Shown: piece by piece, positions 9,154 to 42,973 of the stretch
Position numbering within the stretch: position 1 is the stretch's first letter
Layout of the letters: every line of letters starts with the position of its first letter
Assembly (NCBI GenBank): GCA_963701185.1
Contig: OY969569.1
Span: forward strand, 245,735 to 309,734
Length of the DNA stretch: 64,000 nucleotides
Direction: 5' to 3'
From: Candidatus Gottesmanbacteria bacterium
Lineage (GTDB): Bacteria; Patescibacteriota; Microgenomatia; UBA10105; UBA927
Notes under the pieces: model-generated
Database searches by the model: none
Seen by the model: the letters and a program-made list of their open reading frames with translations, nothing else
Told to the model about the DNA's origin: nothing
Position numbers and translations under genes: made by a program

Positions 9154-10302
9154 ATGCTGATTAAACCCGACATTGCCCGGTTTGCAAAAATTAAAGTCAT
9201 CGGTATCGGCGGCGGCGGCTGCAATGCTATCAACTCCATGATTGCCGGAAGCCAGATAACCGGGGTGGATTTCTTAGGACTGAATACCGATGCTCAGGCG
9301 CTTCTCACCTGTCAGGCGACGACGAAAGTGCAGATCGGAGAAAATCTTACTCGGGGTCTCGGGGCCGGAGGCGATCCGGACATAGGGAAACAGGCCGCGG
9401 AAGAATCGCGCGAGAAACTCAAGGAATACTTGCGGGATGCGGACATGGTATTTTTGACCTGCGGAGAAGGGGGAGGCACCGGAACGGGAGCAACGCCGAT
9501 TGTTGCTGAAATTGCCAAAGAACTCGGGTCCCTCACGGTGGCGGTTGTTACCAAACCGTTCCATTTTGAGGGAACGCGCCGCATGGTGACTGCAGAAGAA
9601 GGCATCATGAATCTCAAGGATAAGGTGGATACGCTTATCGTCATTCCCAACCAGCGGCTTATGGAAGTGATTGATAAAAAAATGACCCTCCTTGACGCCT
9701 TCCGTGTGACAGATTCGGTTCTGGGGCAGGGTGTTCAGGGCATTGCGGACCTTATCACCATGCCGGGTCTCATCAACGTGGATTTTGCCGATGTCCGGAC
9801 CATTATGACCAGTGCCGGAAGTTCCCTTATGGGGATCGGGACCGGCGTCGGAGAAAATAGAGCCGCCACGGCTGCCCGGACCGCCATCGCCTCTCCGCTT
9901 TTGGAGATTTCCATTGACGGGGCGAAGGGCGTCTTATTTAATATTACCGGCGGGCCGGATCTCACGATGGCTGAGGTGGATGAAGCCGCAAAACAGATTG
10001 CCGCCGCAGTTGATCCTGATGCCAACATCATTTTCGGCGCAACCATTGACCAGAATATGGTGGATCAGGTGAAAATTACCGTGATCGCCACGGGATTTGA
10101 TGAAACAAAAAAACGCCTGCGGGAGTTATCCGGCCAGCCCAGCTACAGCACCATGGCCCAGCCGACACAGACCCGCGTGACCCAAACGTCCAACCAGCCC
10201 CAGCCAAAGGCTGGCCAGCCTTTGGCTGGCCCGCGCGACGATGATCTTCCGCCGGAGGAAGACGAATTCGACATCCCCGCATTCCTGCGGCAGAGAAGTT
10301 AG
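9154..10302 (+). CDS. ftsZ: cell division GTPase FtsZ
   Basis: GIGGGGCNAINSM tubulin signature, the T7 loop region, and the C-terminal conserved peptide DIPAFLRQ. Confidence 0.95.
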   Translation: MLIKPDIARFAKIKVIGIGGGGCNAINSMIAGSQITGVDFLGLNTDAQALLTCQATTKVQIGENLTRGLGAGGDPDIGKQAAEESREKLKEYLRDADMVFLTCGEGGGTGTGATPIVAEIAKELGSLTVAVVTKPFHFEGTRRMVTAEEGIMNLKDKVDTLIVIPNQRLMEVIDKKMTLLDAFRVTDSVLGQGVQGIADLITMPGLINVDFADVRTIMTSAGSSLMGIGTGVGENRAATAARTAIASPLLEISIDGAKGVLFNITGGPDLTMAEVDEAAKQIAAAVDPDANIIFGATIDQNMVDQVKITVIATGFDETKKRLRELSGQPSYSTMAQPTQTRVTQTSNQPQPKAGQPLAGPRDDDLPPEEDEFDIPAFLRQRS

Positions 10303-15503: not shown

Positions 15504-16235
15504 ATGAAGGCTGTCAAAACGTTTCTTATCATTGCGGTTTTGAGCCTCGTAGCCGTCACGTCCGCAGTATTGGCGAAAGAGCAGGACGACCGCGGCCCGC
15601 TTACCAAAATTACCTTTATTCATTACAAAAAAGATAAAAATCCGGCAAAGCCAGGGGGAGGCACAAAGCCCGGCTCCACAGCCTGCTACGGGTATTTAGC
15701 CCGCGGCGCAAAATGGAAAACAACGGAGCCGTATATCGTGAACCCGACCAATTCAGAGGGATTAAGTTCATCTCAAGTCTTTAACGCCGTGAGTGCGGGG
15801 GTTCAGGAATGGGATAGTCATCACGCAGGACCGGCAATTTTCGGAACCGGCAGTACCGATTCAAGCGCGGTGTACAACGAGGCGGCGCTGGACAATAAAA
15901 ACGTGGTTGTGTTCGGCGGGGGACTTGCTTCCAATATCATAGCCGTCACCAATGTCTGGGGATATTTCGGCGGTGCGCCGCAAACGAGAGGATTAGTTGA
16001 GTGGGATATGAAATTGAATTCAGTGTTTCAATGGGGCGACGGGGCGACCAACCCTGCTTTGATGGATCTGCAAAATATCGCAACCCATGAGTTGGGCCAC
16101 AGTGCAGGCATGGACGATCTCTATACGACCAGCTGCAACCTGGAAACGATGTACGGCTATTCAACCGAGGGAGACACGATAAAGCGCGATCTCAACACCG
16201 GCGACATCACCGGCCTCCAGGCGTTGTACCAATAA
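15504..16235 (+). CDS. secreted zinc metalloprotease, metzincin (matrixin/snapalysin-like)
   Basis: RBS GGAGGGG; signal peptide; an HELGHSAGMDD zinc-binding motif (HExxHxxGxxD) and a downstream Met-turn-like TMYGY. Confidence 0.7.
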   Translation: MKAVKTFLIIAVLSLVAVTSAVLAKEQDDRGPLTKITFIHYKKDKNPAKPGGGTKPGSTACYGYLARGAKWKTTEPYIVNPTNSEGLSSSQVFNAVSAGVQEWDSHHAGPAIFGTGSTDSSAVYNEAALDNKNVVVFGGGLASNIIAVTNVWGYFGGAPQTRGLVEWDMKLNSVFQWGDGATNPALMDLQNIATHELGHSAGMDDLYTTSCNLETMYGYSTEGDTIKRDLNTGDITGLQALYQ

Positions 16236-16242
16236 GCTTCGG

Positions 16243-16288
16243 GAGAACCAAACAACCCATCAGAAGTTTCCGATGGGCTGGTTTGTTT
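16243..16288. repeat. conserved hairpin-forming intergenic motif, copy 1 (probable bidirectional terminator between convergent genes)
   Basis: GAGAACCAAACAACCCATCAGAAGTTTCCGATGGGCTGGTTTGTTT. It contains an imperfect inverted repeat AACCAAACAACCCATC / GATGGGCTGGTTTGTT, and it is nearly identical to copy 2 over about 40 nt. Confidence 0.55.
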
Positions 16289-16300
16289 AATTAACGTCAA

Positions 16301-16870
16301 TCACTTTACTTTATACGCACCGTATCCAGTTGGGTCCGCGTGAGCAAACCACAGATGTCCGGGTCCGTAACTCGGATCAGTTCCCTGATCCATAATCGTG
16401 GCAAATTGTCCCCAGATACCATATCCGCCCGCGGGTATCAAACTTGGATTTGCCGTATAGTTTCCTACCCAAACAATTTTATAATGCCACACCGCTCCTG
16501 ATCCTCCGGCAACCTTTCCGTTCCATTCATTGTTTTCCCATGCCTGATAGGGCGGATTCGTCCAACCCTCTTTATTTCCGCGGTCCCACTCGGCATTCCA
16601 TTTCATGACCAGTTTATCTTTGGCATATGCGCCGAGATAATCTGCGGGTAATCCTTTTGCAAGTGACCAGCTTTCGCCGGTTCCGTTAAATATTCTGGCC
16701 GTATAGTTGTATCCAAACTCGTTAAATCCGGTACTTGTGCCTTGGACGATTCCCTGATTAATGATTTGTGTAACCACTCCGCTGCTTCCGAGCAAATATG
16801 CAAATACTAAAGCAATGGCAACAAGAAATACCGGCCGTACCGTATTTCCTTTTTTCATTTTAACTTTCAT
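16301..16870 (-). CDS. hypothetical secreted protein (signal peptide, Trp/Gly/Asn-rich)
   Basis: RBS GGAGGTG upstream on the minus strand; N-terminal signal/TM VFLVAIALVFAYLLGSS. Confidence 0.45.
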   Translation of the reverse strand: MKVKMKKGNTVRPVFLVAIALVFAYLLGSSGVVTQIINQGIVQGTSTGFNEFGYNYTARIFNGTGESWSLAKGLPADYLGAYAKDKLVMKWNAEWDRGNKEGWTNPPYQAWENNEWNGKVAGGSGAVWHYKIVWVGNYTANPSLIPAGGYGIWGQFATIMDQGTDPSYGPGHLWFAHADPTGYGAYKVK

Positions 16871-16971
16871 GTGTCACCTCCTCTCAAATAAAGTTCCTAT
16901 AACCACTATATCAGATACTCATATGTGTCCACCACCGCCTACGAGGACTCTCCTCGTAGGTCTAAGGTATC

Positions 16972-17006
16972 GAGAACCAAACAACCCACCGGAAGTTTCC
17001 GATGGG
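16972..17006. repeat. conserved hairpin-forming intergenic motif, copy 2
   Basis: GAGAACCAAACAACCCACCGGAAGTTTCCGATGGG, sitting 3' of minus gene 17026-17889. A perfect 10-bp GC-rich hairpin (CCTACGAGGA ctc TCCTCGTAGG, 16938-16960) lies immediately beside it. Confidence 0.55.
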
Positions 17007-17025
17007 TTGAATGAATAACGAAAAT

Positions 17026-17889
17026 TTACGGAGATACTACCTGTTTACCTGCATGTACATTTGCCTGAACAGAGCTTATACATTCGCCTTGATTTTTGAA
17101 AGATGGGTTAGTAAATTCTTTCCATCCGTCCTTTTTACAATCATCTATTTTTGTCCCGACCCTATGGGCAAAAACTTGAACATTTATGTCGCTACTTTTA
17201 TCCCAACCACCATTACATATTCCGGTAATGGGACCAAGTGAGTTACAGACTTCAGGGTTACTAGATAAACTATTTTGGGGCCAAACAAGCCACCTATCGT
17301 CTGATCCTTGTTGTGTAGTACCACTTAAACCCGCGTTACTTGCATGGTTAAACCAATAATATGAAATTCCTGCTCTCAATGTCCCATCAACAGCGAAGTA
17401 ATATTTATTTCCGCCATCGATTTTAAAATCTAATTTAGTAAAATCATGTTGCCATATTGTACGATCAGCTCCACTTGAGCCTTGGTATGTCAAGGTCGTT
17501 CCAGGATACAAAACCACACTATGAGTGATGTTAGGATTTGAATCATCATTTGTTCCATCAGTTAAATTACCTGATGTTATTTCTGAGATTCCGCCTGTAC
17601 CAGCATATAAACTTATATTGCTAAAGAGGGTTCCTAAAAATTCGGTATTCCCCACACTCCATGTGCGGATGCCTGTTACGACCCACTTCTCTCCAGCTTT
17701 ACCAATAGTAAAATCGTCACCACTCACGTAATCGTTTCCATTCGACCAGGCAACGTTACTTCTTAAAGGTCCAGCAACATTGTTTAAATTTATATTTGGT
17801 AAGCCACGACCTACGACTGGTGGACTAAGTGCAAATACTGGTGTTGCGAGAAATAAAGATGCTACAATTCCAAAAATTATATTTTTCAT
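17026..17889 (-). CDS. secreted protein with conserved C-terminal Cys-x19-Cys tail (CKKDGWKEF...FKNQGECIS)
   Basis: Signal peptide MKNIIFGIVASLFLATPVFA. The C-terminal 30 aa are shared with the protein encoded at 18000-18692. Confidence 0.5.
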   Translation of the reverse strand: MKNIIFGIVASLFLATPVFALSPPVVGRGLPNINLNNVAGPLRSNVAWSNGNDYVSGDDFTIGKAGEKWVVTGIRTWSVGNTEFLGTLFSNISLYAGTGGISEITSGNLTDGTNDDSNPNITHSVVLYPGTTLTYQGSSGADRTIWQHDFTKLDFKIDGGNKYYFAVDGTLRAGISYYWFNHASNAGLSGTTQQGSDDRWLVWPQNSLSSNPEVCNSLGPITGICNGGWDKSSDINVQVFAHRVGTKIDDCKKDGWKEFTNPSFKNQGECISSVQANVHAGKQVVSP

Positions 17890-17932
17890 TTATTTCACCT
17901 CCTTCCCTATAAATTTTTATAACCGATATTTC

Positions 17933-17963
17933 GAACAACCCATCGGATGTTTCCGGTGGGCTG
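17933..17963. repeat. conserved hairpin-forming intergenic motif, copy 3
   Basis: GAACAACCCATCGGATGTTTCCGGTGGGCTG, sitting 3' of minus gene 18000-18692. The stem CCCATCGG/CCGGTGGG is kept with a compensatory/wobble change relative to copy 2. Confidence 0.5.
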
Positions 17964-17999
17964 CATAAAGCAATGCTTTAACTGCAAAATCGTAGTTTA

Positions 18000-18692
18000 T
18001 TAATTTGCCGGCCAATTTTTCTCACCTGTCGCTACGAAGGAAACACAATCTCCTTGGTTTTTAAATACACCAAAATCTTCCCATCCTTCTTTTTTACACT
18101 CATCTTTATTTCCTGGAAGCGCTTCGGTTACGACCACGTTATCTAATACTGGTCCAAAGGCGCCAACAATCTGACTTGCGAACGTTATTGTTGTGCTCGT
18201 TCCTGTAGCTACGAATGAGTAAGTCAAACCTTGTTTCCACTTCATTGGCGATGGATAGTTATTACCTTCAATGGAAGTATCATAACTATAATCTTGGTGA
18301 TTTACCCCATCACTTACTCTAACTACTTTCGGGTTCGGGCTCCAATATGGGTCTGGAGCTGGTAAGTTGCCTGGATTTCCTGATAAATCGAAAGTCACTT
18401 TGTAAGTAGCTCCGGGCACTGTCGTAATAGTTTGACTGATTGATCCCGGTGTAAAACCATTTAAATCAATACTTCTGCTATCATCTGACGCTTCCCAAAG
18501 ACCGCCAATATAATCTACGCTATCCGAATTCACGGTCCAACCGATTATATCCGTAGCCCCTGAATAAAGAGTTATAAAGGTTGATCCAGGATTGGTTCCA
18601 GTTTCAAAACTACCATTAGAAATTAACGATGCTGCATAAACTGTTGTTGCGGACAATAAAAACAGTGCAGTTCCTAAAATTATTTTTTTCAT
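18000..18692 (-). CDS. secreted DUF642 / choice-of-anchor-C-like domain protein with C-terminal Cys-x17-Cys tail
   Basis: Signal peptide. LISNGSFETG...IIGWTV...SIDLNG...ISQTITTVPGATYKVTFDLSGNP matches the DUF642 pattern. The C-terminus KDECKKEGWEDFGVFKNQGDCVSFV is paralogous to that of 17026-17889. Confidence 0.55.
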   Translation of the reverse strand: MKKIILGTALFLLSATTVYAASLISNGSFETGTNPGSTFITLYSGATDIIGWTVNSDSVDYIGGLWEASDDSRSIDLNGFTPGSISQTITTVPGATYKVTFDLSGNPGNLPAPDPYWSPNPKVVRVSDGVNHQDYSYDTSIEGNNYPSPMKWKQGLTYSFVATGTSTTITFASQIVGAFGPVLDNVVVTEALPGNKDECKKEGWEDFGVFKNQGDCVSFVATGEKNWPAN

Positions 18693-18730
18693 TTTTCACC
18701 TCCTCTCTTTTTTTAATTTGCACAAAAAAT

Positions 18731-18746
18731 CCCGTCACGTGACGGG
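18731..18746. promoter_or_regulatory. perfect 16-bp palindrome CCCGTCACGTGACGGG in a divergent promoter region, abutting a TATAAT
   Basis: It sits between the divergent 18000-18692 (-) gene and ileS (+). TATAAT at 18748-18753 is 1 nt downstream. Confidence 0.3.
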
Positions 18747-18867
18747 ATATAATGAGAAACGACTGAGAAATGACACTGCAAATGTCATGGGCCCATAATT
18801 GCAGATATCGGCTGGAATGTCAACATATCAATAATAGCGCTTCTGCTGATATAATAAAGAAATCAGT

Positions 18868-21690
18868 ATGGCAAAGACGCAGACATTCAAACCGGTGACG
18901 GCAGGAGTGAATTTTCCCGAGCTCGAAGAGCGGGTGATCACATACTGGAAAGAGAATAAGATTTTTGAGAAATCCGTCGAGAGCAGGCCTGCGGATAAAA
19001 CATGGACGTTTCTGGACGGCCCGCCGTTTATTACCGGTCTCCCGCACTACGGAACATTACTTTCCAGCATCCCCAAAGATTTATTCCCGAGATATTGGAC
19101 GATGAAAGGGTACCGCGTGCGGCGCGTGTGGGGATGGGATTGCCATGGATTACCGGCGGAAAACAAAGTGGAAACCAAACTGCATCTCAAACGGAAAAAA
19201 GATATTGAGAGCGGGATCGGCGTCCAGAAATTCATTGACGAGTGCAAAACCTACGTTTCGGAAGTTTCCGGCGAATGGGAATGGTACGTTCTGCATATCG
19301 GCCGGTGGGTGGATTTCAAAAATGCCTATAAGACGATGGATACCGATTACATGGAGACAGTGATGTGGGTATTCAAACAGATGTTTGAGAAGAAATTAAT
19401 TTATAAGGGCCTGCGCGTGTCTCTCTACTGCCCGCACGACGTGACACCGATTTCCAATTTTGAAGTGGCGATGGACCCGGATAATTACAAGGAAATTACC
19501 GAGCCGGCGGCGGTCTTCATGTACCAGTCGGAAGAAGCGAAGGATACCTACTATCTTGCGTGGAGTACGACGCCGTGGAATAAAATCGCCACGCCCGCCC
19601 TTGCTGTTAACCCAAAACTGCAATACGTGAAAGTCCAGCAGGGGAATGAAAAATATATTTTAGCTAAATCGACCCTCAGGATGCTCTCCGATAAGCCGTA
19701 TAAAATTCTTGAGGAGTTTGCGGGGCGTACGCTGGTCGGCAAAAGATTTGAGCCGCACTACAACTTTTATACAATCGACGAAGGCAAAAAAGCATTCGTC
19801 ATTATCCCCGGAGATTTCGTGACCGCCGACGAGGGGACGGGGATCGTCACGATTGCCGCTTACGGCGAGGAAGATCTTGCGGTCATGCAAAAAGAGAATA
19901 TTCAAATTGTCCAGCATGTGGACGAAGAAGGCATCATAAAACCGGAGGTCCCCAAGTGGGCCGGGAAATATTATCTTGATGTGGATCCTCTTGTGATTGA
20001 AGATTTAAAGAAACGGGGGCTCATCTACCGCGTGGACGAATATACCCATCCGGTACCGACGTGCTGGCGCTGCCACACGCGCCTCATGTACGCGCCGCAG
20101 AACGCGTGGTACGTTCGGGTGCAGTCCTTAAAGGCAAAAATGAAGGCGACCAATGAGAAGGTGAACTGGGTTCCCGCGCACTTCAAGTACGGCAGATATC
20201 TCAAGAGTTTGGAGAACGCGCCGGACTGGTGCATCTCACGCAGCCGCTACTGGGGTTCGCCGGTTCCGGTGTGGGAATGCAAAAACGGGCATCTGTTCGT
20301 GCCGGGATCTATGAAAGAATTAGAGGAAGCGTCCGGTATGAAGATCACGGATTTGCATAAACCCGGCATCGACGCAGTAACAGTAACCTGCAAAGAGTGC
20401 AAAGAAAAAGCAATCCGCGTGTCAGAGGTGTTGGACAGCTGGATAGAAGCAGGCAGCGCTCTGTTTGCCGAACGGCACTTCCCCTTTAACAAAGACGTAA
20501 AACTTGAAGCATTCTTCCCTCCGGATTTCATCGTCGAGTATACCGGCCAGATCCGTGCGTGGTTTTACGTCCTGCATGTCATAGCCTGCGCCCTCTATGA
20601 TTCGCACGCATTTAAAAACGTCCTGGTGACCGGCGTTATTTTGGGTACGGACGGCAGGAAAATGAGCAAGAACTACAGTAATTATCCGGATCCTAAAGAA
20701 ACGCTTCTTACATACGGCGGGGATGCGCTGCGGCTGTATTTATTGGGGAGCCCGGTCATGCACGGAGAGGATATCCGCATTTCGGAACTTGAGTATAGGA
20801 ACCAGGTGAGGGGCATGCTCTTGCTTTTATGGAATGTGTATAACTTTTTCGTGACGTACGCCGCGATTGATACATGGACGCCGGAAAAATCGCCGGATAG
20901 TAAAAATGTACTGGACCGATGGATCGTTTCGAGATTAAACAGCACGATTGCCGATATCACCGAAAAAGGGTATGAGACATATGATACGCCGGTTATCGTG
21001 TCCGTCGCGTGGGCATTCATGCAGGACTTGTCTTTATGGTACGTGCGAAGGATCCGCGACCGCGTTGGGCCGACTGTCCCGGCGGGAAAAGATAAAAACG
21101 ATGCCTATCAGACATTGTGGCAGGTTCTTACCACGTATACAAAAATCCTTGCGCCGCTTATTCCGTTTGTGACGGAGGAAATATATCGGAATCTTACCGG
21201 AGAAGAGTCTGTACATTTGACTCTCTGGCCGGAGTCAGGGAGTGTGGATGCCGCATTGGAAAAAGAAATGAATCTTGCCCGCCAGGTTGTTGAAAAAGCG
21301 CACGCCATACGTAAAGCTGAAAAACTGAAAGTACGCCAGCCGCTGGCGCTTCTGACCGCGGTTACTCCCGTGGGGTTGTCGGAGGATGTCCGGCGTGTTA
21401 TTGCAGAAGAGGTCAATGTAAAGAAGGTAACCAATACGGTCGGGGAGTTGAAAGTGACATTAGATCTGGAATTGACTGATCAGCTGAAAAATGAAGGCGC
21501 CGCGCGGGAGCTCGTCCGCGACATTCAGAAGATGAGAAAAGAAAAAGGTTGTACAATAGATGCGCATATCACGCTGGTGTTGCCTGGCGACGATCAATCG
21601 CTATCGAAAGACCTTTTGGCATATATACAAAAAGAAACACTTGCGGATACCATTACATGGGGCGACGCACTCACCATATCGACTGGATAG
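18868..21690 (+). CDS. ileS: isoleucyl-tRNA synthetase, type 2 (eukaryote/archaeal-like)
   Basis: FLDGPPFITGLPHYG resembles eukaryotic-type IleRS FYDGPPFATGLPHYGH. WCISRSRYWGSPVPVW is present. GRKMSKNYSNYPDP matches the type-2 KMSK...NYPDP pattern. Confidence 0.8.
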   Translation: MAKTQTFKPVTAGVNFPELEERVITYWKENKIFEKSVESRPADKTWTFLDGPPFITGLPHYGTLLSSIPKDLFPRYWTMKGYRVRRVWGWDCHGLPAENKVETKLHLKRKKDIESGIGVQKFIDECKTYVSEVSGEWEWYVLHIGRWVDFKNAYKTMDTDYMETVMWVFKQMFEKKLIYKGLRVSLYCPHDVTPISNFEVAMDPDNYKEITEPAAVFMYQSEEAKDTYYLAWSTTPWNKIATPALAVNPKLQYVKVQQGNEKYILAKSTLRMLSDKPYKILEEFAGRTLVGKRFEPHYNFYTIDEGKKAFVIIPGDFVTADEGTGIVTIAAYGEEDLAVMQKENIQIVQHVDEEGIIKPEVPKWAGKYYLDVDPLVIEDLKKRGLIYRVDEYTHPVPTCWRCHTRLMYAPQNAWYVRVQSLKAKMKATNEKVNWVPAHFKYGRYLKSLENAPDWCISRSRYWGSPVPVWECKNGHLFVPGSMKELEEASGMKITDLHKPGIDAVTVTCKECKEKAIRVSEVLDSWIEAGSALFAERHFPFNKDVKLEAFFPPDFIVEYTGQIRAWFYVLHVIACALYDSHAFKNVLVTGVILGTDGRKMSKNYSNYPDPKETLLTYGGDALRLYLLGSPVMHGEDIRISELEYRNQVRGMLLLLWNVYNFFVTYAAIDTWTPEKSPDSKNVLDRWIVSRLNSTIADITEKGYETYDTPVIVSVAWAFMQDLSLWYVRRIRDRVGPTVPAGKDKNDAYQTLWQVLTTYTKILAPLIPFVTEEIYRNLTGEESVHLTLWPESGSVDAALEKEMNLARQVVEKAHAIRKAEKLKVRQPLALLTAVTPVGLSEDVRRVIAEEVNVKKVTNTVGELKVTLDLELTDQLKNEGAARELVRDIQKMRKEKGCTIDAHITLVLPGDDQSLSKDLLAYIQKETLADTITWGDALTISTG

Positions 21691-42902: not shown

Positions 42903-42934
42903 ATCCCCGCGCATGCGGGGATCTGCCTTTTTTT
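42903..42934 (+). terminator. rho-independent terminator after lemA (ATCCCCGC gcat GCGGGGAT, then T7)
   Basis: A perfect 8-bp GC-rich stem at 42903-42922, then CTGCC and TTTTTTT at 42928-42934. Confidence 0.7.
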
Positions 42935-42952: not shown

Positions 42953-42973
42953 ATTCCCGATCAGGTCGGGAAT
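42953..42973 (+). promoter_or_regulatory. second hairpin (ATTCCCGA tcagg TCGGGAAT) 13 nt upstream of the htpX start
   Basis: An inverted-orientation near-copy of the terminator hairpin arms. It is flanked by TTTGTCAT (42897-42904) and ATGACAAA (42973-42980), so it may act as a 5'-UTR element. Confidence 0.3.

Follow-up and report, generated by a model that had tools for sequence, protein, structure and literature searches.

A homologous hairpin past the stop codons of accessory secretome genes in Candidatus Gottesmanbacteria: a probable family of intrinsic terminators

Introduction

Why does the same short palindrome stand after each of three consecutive genes? The locus in question holds genes D, C and B between an M10 peptidase gene (gene A) and ileS on the 995-kb chromosome of a member of Candidatus Gottesmanbacteria (CPR/Microgenomates), and we analyzed it within a 64-kb stretch of that chromosome, hereafter the window. 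A first-pass annotation had described three copies of the motif and had offered as explanations a family-specific terminator, a 3′-UTR element or a small REP- or MITE-like repeat. To our knowledge, the mobile-element biology and the transcription signals of Gottesmanbacteria are almost unstudied, and nothing useful was found in the literature on the terminators of CPR bacteria and on those of morons.

Results

The core AACAACCCAYCRGAWGTTTCCGRTGGG is present three times in the window (16251-16277, 16980-17006 and 17934-17960), where none is expected. As not one of 100 shuffled sequences yielded three matches, a chance repeat is ruled out and the three copies described in the first pass are real. 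They lie within 1.8 kb of each other, and copies 1 and 2 are near-identical across approximately 35-40 nt, close to the 40 nt first given. A count with a covariance model, which had been proposed as a check, returned three copies in the 64 kb, all at gene 3′ ends, and no fourth even with filters off. Each window copy directly follows the gene of a signal-peptide protein, as had been claimed, and the hairpin described below starts 16-36 nt past the stop codons of genes B, C and D on the minus strand (Table 1).

Several origins of the repeat were tried and rejected. No Rfam 15 family matched the motif, only four tRNAs reached the gathering score in the window, and a permissive search of positions 16150-18900 gave no match with E<0.05; a known RNA family is therefore ruled out, as is a tRNA-derived sequence. 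The motif is not a by-product of gene duplication, since the upstream proteins are unrelated save for a 39-aa C-terminal domain (CKKDGW...NQGEC) common to C and D, and the DNA similarity around the copies is confined to 27-35 nt including the hairpin. Conservation of the motif alongside gene C orthologues was likewise ruled out, as it is missing from four loci with gene C homologues. The family of gene B is highly conserved across CPR bacteria.

Table 1. Positions of the genes, hairpins, tails and putative promoter elements in the window.
Feature	Position	Strand	Description
Gene A	15504..16235	+	243-aa secreted M10 (matrixin-like) peptidase; converges on copy 1
Copy 1 tail	16243..16252	-	U-rich, UUUGGUUCUC
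Copy 1	16253..16280	-	12-bp hairpin CAGCCCAUCGGA-AACU-UCUGAUGGGUUG; starts 20 nt past the gene B stop codon
Gene B	16301..16870	-	189-aa secreted or membrane-anchored protein, no Pfam match
Gene B -10 box	16905..16913	-	putative extended -10 box TGATATAGT, 34 nt upstream of the ATG; from sequence and alignment
Extra hairpin	16938..16960		perfect 10-bp GC hairpin CCTACGAGGA-CTC-TCCTCGTAGG, no U-tract
Copy 2 tail	16972-16981	-	UUUGGUUCUC
Copy 2	16982..17009	-	fully paired 12-bp hairpin CAACCCAUCGGA-AACU-UCCGGUGGGUUG; starts 16 nt past the gene C stop codon
Gene C	17026..17889	-	287-aa signal-peptide protein, no Pfam match
Gene C -10-like box	17916..17921	-	putative TATAAA, at the position homologous to the gene B -10 box
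Copy 3	17936..17963	-	hairpin CAGCCCACCGGA-AACA-UCCGAUGGGUUG, one C.A mismatch; starts 36 nt past the gene D stop codon
Gene D	18000..18692	-	230-aa signal-peptide protein with DUF642

The functional strand of the hairpin is the minus strand, that is, the sense strand of genes D, C and B. The motif as first quoted, although real, was the plus strand and hence the reverse complement of the RNA-sense hairpin, and the functional strand had not been named. On the sense strand the hairpin has 12 bp, CA(A/G)CCCAYCGGA-AACW-UCYGRUGGGUUG, and is followed in the window copies by tails of the UUUGGUU type. In copies 1 and 2 the minus strand forms 12 pairs with no mismatch (10-11 Watson-Crick pairs and 1-2 G.U pairs), and the sense strand of copy 3 has a single C.A mismatch; the plus-strand fold carries A.C mismatches. 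Folding the copies, as had been suggested, gave a stable predicted structure for all three, better on the minus strand. The bare sense-strand hairpins range from -15.5 to -19.8 kcal/mol; copy 1 folds at -22.1 kcal/mol on the minus strand (z -4.4) against -14.2 kcal/mol on the plus strand (z -0.55), copy 2 at -19.8 kcal/mol in sense against -15.7 kcal/mol in antisense, and z-scores in context are between -4.4 and -7.2 for these two copies. The sense strand had the lower minimum free energy in 8 of 10 cases, by 3-9 kcal/mol, and 96.8% of its cells were paired compared with 87.0% in antisense, a difference owing to G.U pairs. Since such pairs break exact seeds, a hairpin search by exact-seed repeats was uninformative and was replaced by a 40-nt sliding RNAfold scan of the 64 kb, in which copies 1 and 2 were among the most stable local folds. 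Compensatory changes had also been reported among the window copies; this was overstated, as only one-sided G.U/A.U changes are present and no true double change.

The three copies differ in their surroundings. Copy 1 lies between genes A and B, which are convergent, and forms a symmetric 17-bp stem together with its flanks (16246-16285); the extended arm that had been noted is present. Copies 1 and 2 have the tail UUUGGUUCUC, conform to the rule of the terminator scan and rank top in each 20-kb block, in a scan whose total terminator count is at chance level; copy 3, with the weak tail UUCGAAAUAU, is not called. The GGTTCTC stretch of the copy 1 tail is conserved: it recurs after copy 2 and, in a form with an insertion, in one copy from another genome (L001). 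Across the hairpin family the U-run comprises 3-4 U's and is then interrupted by G, and the tails are poor in copy 3, in the L018 copy and in one of two L097 copies (L097b), so that termination efficiency is uncertain. The additional GC hairpin that had been described next to copy 2 is there as well; it sits in a 41-nt stretch which, by alignment, is missing from the orthologous intergenic region of L097.

Six further homologous copies were found in related Gottesmanbacteria and metagenome contigs (L001, L018, L019, L222 and two in L097). All six share the sense strand with the preceding gene and lie 18-26 nt past its stop codon, and with the window copies nine of nine are in the sense orientation, 16-36 nt past the stop. 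Two looser look-alikes are positioned 14-19 nt past the stop codon. The look-alikes L012, L041 and L224 share only CAACCC...GGGTTGTTT, may be generic terminators and were left out of the family. The nine copies are homologous, not convergent. The genes upstream of them are mostly unrelated and mostly encode signal-peptide or membrane proteins; the association with secreted proteins put forward in the first-pass annotation is therefore a tendency and not a rule, as one copy follows the gene of a cytoplasmic methyltransferase.

The module is rare. Each genome sampled had 1-3 copies, a 446-kb contig had one, and loci of about 20 kb from five Gottesmanbacteria had none or one. The strict motif had no match in 185,579 reference genomes (GTDB representatives), closed Gottesmanbacteria chromosomes included, and one match in the JGI metagenomes. 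In other Gottesmanbacteria the module recurs upstream of ileS, in the same hypervariable locus, as well as at the border of an element with a serine recombinase that is inserted in comM, and in an M10-peptidase/B cluster elsewhere. The copies of the window, L018 and L019 are all in the variable region beside ileS. Gene B lies between two copies both in the window and in L097, and at the place of hairpin-B-hairpin in L097 there is a single copy in L018, the downstream TP-rich gene being the same. The L001 copy matches copy 2 at 35 of 35 nt, with no further DNA in common, and some 105 nt separate it from the junction of a serine-recombinase element that has integrated there. One Logan contig breaks off precisely at copy 2.

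Among the homologous copies neither the base of the stem nor the first U's change, whereas the loop and the top of the stem vary by indels, a gradient that is expected of a terminator. Support from covariation is weak, as the only compensatory pair is one that changes from G-C to A-U, and as much is attained in 68 of 500 shuffles. In six of eight copies there is almost no change in the outer 10 bp or in a U.G wobble at pair 8. Genomes that agree at only 47-64% of third codon positions, and whose synonymous sites are saturated, still have hairpins that are 86-100% identical. Sequence conservation thus exceeds structural need, and a partner that recognizes the sequence, or recent transfer, could account for the excess.

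In the window, homology also continues past the hairpin. By alignment, the D-C and C-B spacers correspond as far as the -10-like box and the ribosome-binding site (RBS), and such boxes together with strong RBSs lie downstream of copies 2 and 3. The promoter-like sequence and RBS of gene B are retained in L097, where the -10 box reads TGCTATAGT. The repeated unit appears to be a terminator-promoter-RBS junction, with promoter activity predicted from sequence, and because copies 2 and 3 are also upstream of B and C, these two may have a 5′ role.

Discussion

Our preferred reading, to which we give a probability of about 0.65, is that the hairpins are a lineage-restricted family of homologous intrinsic terminators, forming part of a terminator-promoter-RBS junction that moves together with accessory genes of the secretome. 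Most probably the hairpin itself is a commonplace signal to stop transcription that was copied together with such genes. The earlier proposal of a family-specific terminator or 3′-UTR element is supported by the stable strand-specific fold, the sense position past the stop codon, the U-rich tail and the existence of nine like copies. Read on the minus strand, the window copies would act as terminators of the Rho-independent type and end the transcription of D, C and B, three successive units. In the mRNA, the 12-bp hairpin with its G+C-rich lower stem (CCC/GGG), followed by UUG-UUUGGUU, would cause RNA polymerase to pause and release the transcript, and would protect the 3′ end. Copy 1 has gained an A-rich 5′ flank that makes the structure symmetric, and owing to this symmetry could stop the convergent gene A too, as a bidirectional terminator. 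Copy 3 is probably leaky, given its mismatch and poor U-tract, with some D transcripts reaching C. Because the same module follows unrelated genes in other Gottesmanbacteria, it would seem to spread and persist in the company of accessory genes, mostly of the secretome, that are exchanged horizontally as a pool.

If this reading is true, its value is mainly one of annotation, as it would delimit the units in which a small island of accessory secretome genes is transcribed in a CPR bacterium, and recognizable intrinsic terminators would be rare in this stretch and concentrated on accessory genes. A sequence-conserved terminator module on different cargo across species could also serve to trace gene-cassette exchange among Gottesmanbacteria. 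The finding is ordinary overall, its one oddity being strong sequence conservation despite saturated synonymous sites.

The hairpin could instead be a 3′-UTR element bound sequence-specifically by an RNA-binding protein or nuclease, chiefly a tag on accessory secretome transcripts for stability, processing or localization, with termination secondary or absent; the nearly frozen outer stem and pair-8 wobble, the synonymous saturation between the same genomes, the weak U-tracts and the predominance of signal-peptide and membrane proteins upstream are all consistent with such a tag. We nevertheless regard it as unlikely, given that one copy stands behind the gene of a cytoplasmic methyltransferase, that no candidate binding protein was identified, that constraint greatest at the bottom of the stem is equally expected of a terminator, and that the bias toward secreted proteins is confounded by the accessory-island setting and the shared ancestry of the copies. 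A broader version, in which a sequence-specific module marks exchanged accessory, mostly secretome, genes, either as a protein-recognized tag at mRNA 3′ ends or as a DNA anchor for swaps at hotspots (upstream of ileS, elements inserted in comM), stays compatible with a stem frozen despite synonymous saturation and with copies at cassette-like boundaries; we consider it quite unlikely. A palindromic operator, through which a dimeric transcription factor would control the downstream genes C and B, would fit the near-palindromic DNA and the location of copies 3 and 2, 47 and 112 nt upstream of the respective start codons. It is extremely improbable, however, as no gene follows on the same strand after copy 1, the L001 copy and others, half-site spacing varies (total lengths of 24, 26, 28 and 30 nt), and the consistent G.U-type asymmetry on the sense strand points to RNA rather than duplex DNA.

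Two further readings make the repeat an element of DNA. Escherichia coli REP/BIME and pneumococcal BOX/RUP are extragenic repeats, of which REP and BOX have tens to hundreds of copies in both orientations, often in clustered mosaics, and repeats of this type can stabilize the upstream mRNA. The hairpin resembles them as a short, imperfect extragenic palindrome at gene 3′ ends whose sequence is common to unrelated loci in several genomes, and both the 35-nt identity of L001 and copy 2 with nothing else shared and the contig break at copy 2 would suit a small mobile repeat inserting in intergenic DNA near gene ends. It differs from them in having 1-3 copies per sampled genome (three within 1.8 kb in the window, one in the 446-kb contig, the strict form absent from the GTDB representatives) and in being oriented like the upstream gene in every case. 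Among the ORFs of window positions 1-43 kb there is no gene for a transposase or a RAYT-like protein, and no terminal inverted repeats or target-site duplications surround the unit, which consists of one 28-nt hairpin plus about 10 nt with flanks that do not align between copies, compared with 50 bp or more for a MITE. Copy number and anatomy rule out a REP or MITE as such, and even a repeat merely akin to these, as had been suggested, is very improbable. The hairpin might instead be a cassette boundary, an attC-like recombination site or homology anchor for gene swaps upstream of ileS. The directly oriented array of three gene-hairpin units, the flanking of B by two copies, the L018/L097 difference, the shared position beside ileS and the proximity of the L001 copy to the recombinase-element junction argue for this, and integron attC arrays likewise combine a conserved stem base and a variable top with strand-specific folding. 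Against it, the hairpin measures 28 nt as opposed to 57-141 nt, has at most one mismatch and no extrahelical bases, and lacks the R″/R′ core sites (RYYYAAC/GTTRRRY) in copies 1 and 3; on inspection of the sequence, GTTGAAT occurs only after copy 2 and in L001, and R″ is absent. Neither a recombinase nor an integrase, of integrons or otherwise, was found among the ORFs of positions 1-43 kb, the genes have promoter-like boxes and RBSs of their own, the L001 hairpin is off the att junction itself, and a cassette boundary gives no role to the U-rich tail and the fixed distance from the stop codon. Core sites, size and the lack of an integrase in positions 1-43 kb rule out attC proper, and a boundary of any such kind seems very unlikely.

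The intrinsic-terminator reading can itself be set against known systems. As in intrinsic terminators generally, a stable stem-loop with a G+C-rich base and a U-rich run after it lies a few tens of nucleotides past the stop codon on the sense strand, and copy 1 has the A-tract/hairpin/U-tract symmetry of bidirectional terminators. The U-tract is, however, short and interrupted by G, and unlike ordinary terminators, each of which has its own unrelated sequence, those described here repeat one hairpin in different species and behind unrelated genes. Inverted pairs of the Neisseria DUS and Haemophilus USS double as terminators, and the single sequences are massively over-represented, also inside genes. 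The module is similar to such pairs in that a terminator hairpin of lineage-specific sequence is built from a conserved 10-12-mer together with the inverted copy; in contrast, its 7-8-mer half-sites occur in the window outside the three hairpins at about the number expected from composition, so that an uptake-signal sequence is ruled out. In the phage moron, an accessory gene carries its own promoter and factor-independent terminator. The locus differs from morons in having no phage genes in the window locus, the motif is absent from the phage database, and viral contigs contain no close relatives of B and C. A phage origin of the motif was rejected, as a strict viral scan gave three generic look-alike terminators only and the phage record collection gave no match; a loose viral scan returned at least 120 stretches, about the number expected by chance on a rough estimate, with generic hairpins of unrelated phages among the matches listed. 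The cargo here is mostly secreted proteins, with the L001 copy at the end of an integrated serine-recombinase element. Like morons, the units would be self-contained, each with a putative promoter, RBS, gene and terminator, and genes C and D have a lower G+C content than their surroundings (39% vs. 50%).

A repeated hairpin at the ends of secreted-protein genes

The first-pass annotation had described a hairpin motif recurring at three gene ends in the window, and this repeat is real: a window search placed the core AACAACCCAYCRGAWGTTTCCGRTGGG at three positions (see table), and none of 100 dinucleotide-preserving shuffles of the window contained a match. A covariance model based on these copies found no fourth one in the 64 kb, with default filters or with filters off; its next-best match, at 15 bits, lies within ileS. 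The surrounding DNA is chromosomal (dcw cluster, ftsA, ftsZ, ileS, rodA/ftsW, parB, lepB and glycosyltransferase genes) and belongs to a 995-kb contig of a Candidatus Gottesmanbacteria bacterium (CPR/Microgenomates), with an IleRS 86%, 81% and 76% identical to those of three Gottesmanbacteria MAGs. All four neighbouring genes A to D encode N-terminal signal peptides or signal anchors, and along the minus strand one meets D, copy 3, C, copy 2, B and copy 1 in turn, followed by the end of gene A, which is convergent with B. Across C and D the G+C content drops from about 50% to about 39%. Copy 1 does have the extended arm, and the additional 10-bp GC hairpin beside copy 2 is also present as claimed.

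Features of the window around and beyond the three hairpin copies (window numbering)
Feature	Position	Strand	Description
Gene A	15504-16235	+	secreted M10 peptidase
Gene B	16870-16301	-	189 aa, without Pfam match
Gene C	17889-17026	-	287 aa, without Pfam match
Gene D	18692-18000	-	230 aa, DUF642
Core of copy 1	16251-16277	- (sense)	hairpin starts 20 nt past stop codon of B; 3' tail UUUGGUUCUC
Core of copy 2	16980-17006	- (sense)	hairpin starts 16 nt past stop codon of C; 3' tail UUUGGUUCUC
Core of copy 3	17934-17960	- (sense)	hairpin starts 36 nt past stop codon of D; 3' tail UUCGAAAUAU
GC hairpin beside copy 2	16938-16960		in 41-nt indel (entered under 16961-17001)
C-terminal domain of C	17026-17140		about 35 aa
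C-terminal domain of D	18000-18110		about 35 aa
Region compared upstream of ileS	14735-18868		gene content variable
Hairpin upstream of D	18729-18748	-	perfect 8-bp palindrome ATCCCGTCAC/GTGACGGGAT, then UUUUUUGUG
Promoter-like site upstream of D	18823-18795	-	TTGACA-17-TGcAATTAT
ftsZ	9154-10302		
Palindrome in ftsZ	10195-10234		CCAGCCAAAGGCTGG|CCAGCCTTTGGCTGG, 30 nt, perfect
First LemA-side hairpin	42903-42922	+	ATCCCCGC-GCAT-GCGGGGAT
Second LemA-side hairpin	42953-42973	-	ATTCCCGA-CCTGA-TCGGGAAT

Fold and functional strand

Read on the minus strand, the copies share the form CA(A/G)CCCAYCGGA-AACW-UCYGRUGGGUUG, with 12 bp in the stem and 4 nt in the loop. On this strand the stem is fully paired (12/12) in copies 1 and 2, with one or two G.U pairs that become A.C mismatches on the plus strand. 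Bare-hairpin energies for copies 1, 2 and 3 were -18.2, -19.8 and -15.5 kcal/mol in sense and -10.1, -15.7 and -16.4 kcal/mol in antisense; copy 3, with a C.A mismatch in sense, is the exception to the sense-strand preference. When 40-nt segments were folded in a sliding scan along the entire window on both strands, copies 2 and 1 came out among the approximately five most stable loci, and they were the two best sites of a terminator scan; terminator-like sites in the window occurred at chance level (30 vs 24.5, 26 vs 22.1 and 27 vs 23.4).

When eight copies were aligned, sense pairing covered 96.8% of cells and antisense pairing 87.0%. The earlier claim of compensatory stem changes is overstated: one pair changes from G-C to A-U, while of the 12 pairs 6 are invariant and 3 show one-sided changes, and the covariation level was equalled in 68/500 shuffles. 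Since covariation is weak, support for the fold comes from stability, strand asymmetry and consistent placement. Most variation among the aligned copies, including indels, falls in the loop and top two pairs, the bottom ten pairs and first U's being almost invariant. The motif had no Rfam match.

Relatives in other genomes

The strict motif was absent from 185,579 GTDB representative genomes and matched once in JGI metagenomes, at locus L001. This copy is identical to copy 2 at 35/35 positions, with no other DNA common to the two loci; it follows the stop codon of an unrelated signal-peptide gene (276 aa) by 26 nt and lies about 105 nt in from the end of an element that has a large serine recombinase and is inserted in comM. 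The comM fragment finds its closest match (74%) in a Gottesmanbacteria protein. At L001 1-625 this element interrupts comM (a Mg-chelatase-like ATPase gene) at the Walker-B region. Many database comM homologues are C-terminal fragments of 204-220 aa starting at the same point, which suggests that CPR bacteria commonly have insertions at this site.

Among 80 ileS loci from related genomes (1.4 Mb), two held clear copies, both in the same hypervariable region as those of the window. The L018 copy follows a methyltransferase gene at a distance of 3.3 kb from ileS, and the L019 copy, with a 10-bp stem and GAAA loop, follows an 85-aa gene at 360 nt from ileS, both on the upstream side. The closest relative, L017, had no copy upstream of ileS, and its genes there are entirely different from those of the window. 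Gene content just upstream of ileS was completely different in each Gottesmanbacteria genome examined (the window, L017, L018 and L019), with a conserved 449-aa gene at the far side in the window and L018; the region behaves as an accessory-gene hotspot.

In L097, a contig with a homologue of B, that gene stands between two hairpins (hairpin-B-hairpin), which are the orthologues of copies 2 and 1. In locus L222 the copy lies 3' of a gene whose 245-aa secreted product shares the CKKxGW...NQGxC C-terminal domain of C and D; next come an M10 peptidase gene and a homologue of B. The looser look-alikes in L012, L041 and L224 share only CAACCC...GGGTTGTTT with the motif and may be generic terminators.

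B homologues were examined in L012, L016, L097, L222 and L224; the cluster that contains B has 26 members at a nominal 90% identity, from several CPR lineages, a Liptonbacteria MAG among them. In L222 B neighbours an M10 peptidase gene again, and in L012 a tRNA gene lies immediately upstream of it. B has the look of a small secreted protein that is passed on by horizontal exchange. The C-terminal domain of about 35 aa in C, D and L222 (1380-1497), D(D/E)CKK(D/E/G)GW..F..P.FKNQG(E/D)C(I/V)S.V, had no Pfam match and joins otherwise unrelated proteins; because some distant C homologues have a PEP-CTERM domain in its place, it may serve in sorting or anchoring.

Interpretation of the motif

The most likely explanation of the motif is that its copies are homologous intrinsic terminators, forming a small, lineage-restricted family on accessory, mostly secretome genes. 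The proposed family-specific terminator is supported by the stable sense fold and by placement: in 9/9 copies the hairpin is in sense with the upstream gene and lies 16-36 nt past the stop codon of that gene. Copy 1 would be adapted to bidirectional use, and copy 3 is probably a leaky terminator. The REP/MITE-like repeat offered as an alternative is not supported, given the low copy number, the fixed orientation, the lack of TIR or TSD, and the absence of a transposase from window 1-43 kb. An uptake sequence is disfavoured by half-sites that are not enriched outside the hairpins, an attC site by the absence of core sites and appropriate size and of an integrase from window 1-43 kb, and an operator by variable half-site spacing and by copies with no downstream gene. 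Viral and phage searches gave no evidence of a phage link for the motif or for genes B and C.

The proteins encoded upstream of the copies are unrelated, except for a 39-aa C-terminal domain common to C and D, and DNA similarity between copy loci is limited to the hairpin, except in the D-C and C-B intergenic regions, whose alignment extends through a -10-like box (TATAAA / TGATATAGT) to the RBS AGGAGGTGA. As the -10 box and RBS of gene B are also conserved in L097, the repeated unit would be a terminator-promoter-RBS junction. Third-codon-position identity to the window is 52% for L018, 47% for L019 and 64% for L097 (gene B), whereas hairpin identity is 86-100%, which would point to either strong purifying selection on the hairpin module or its recent exchange. 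A shared terminator family is ordinary biology; the single mild oddity is that one hairpin is reused and strongly conserved across genes and species, and this leaves room, at a small probability, for a sequence-specific partner or a cassette-boundary role.

Other hairpins in the window

The L097 intergenic region orthologous to that of copy 2 is well conserved apart from the 41-nt indel, so that the GC hairpin is missing there; the indel is bordered by GGT/GGTGG, and the hairpin has no U-tract. The hairpin upstream of D lies between a good promoter-like site and the RBS of D, so that the presumed leader of D has a terminator-like element within it. L001 repeats this layout (hairpin, U7, GUG, then GGAGGAGGTGAAAAAT) ahead of its secreted-protein gene. 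The D leader hairpin could act in attenuation, or it could have been the terminator of an upstream gene since lost. Two terminator-like hairpins between the LemA gene and the next gene share with it the design AT(T)CCC...GGG(A)AT, and the three may form a second small terminator-sequence family. The most stable local fold of the window (-26 kcal/mol) is the palindrome inside the 3' end of ftsZ, just before an overlapping GH130 ORF. Finally, a 1765-bp short-read Logan contig (L002) identical to the D-C part of the window has its start within the hairpin upstream of D and its end exactly within copy 2. Both hairpins are therefore break points of the assembly graph, consistent with palindromic or repeated k-mers.
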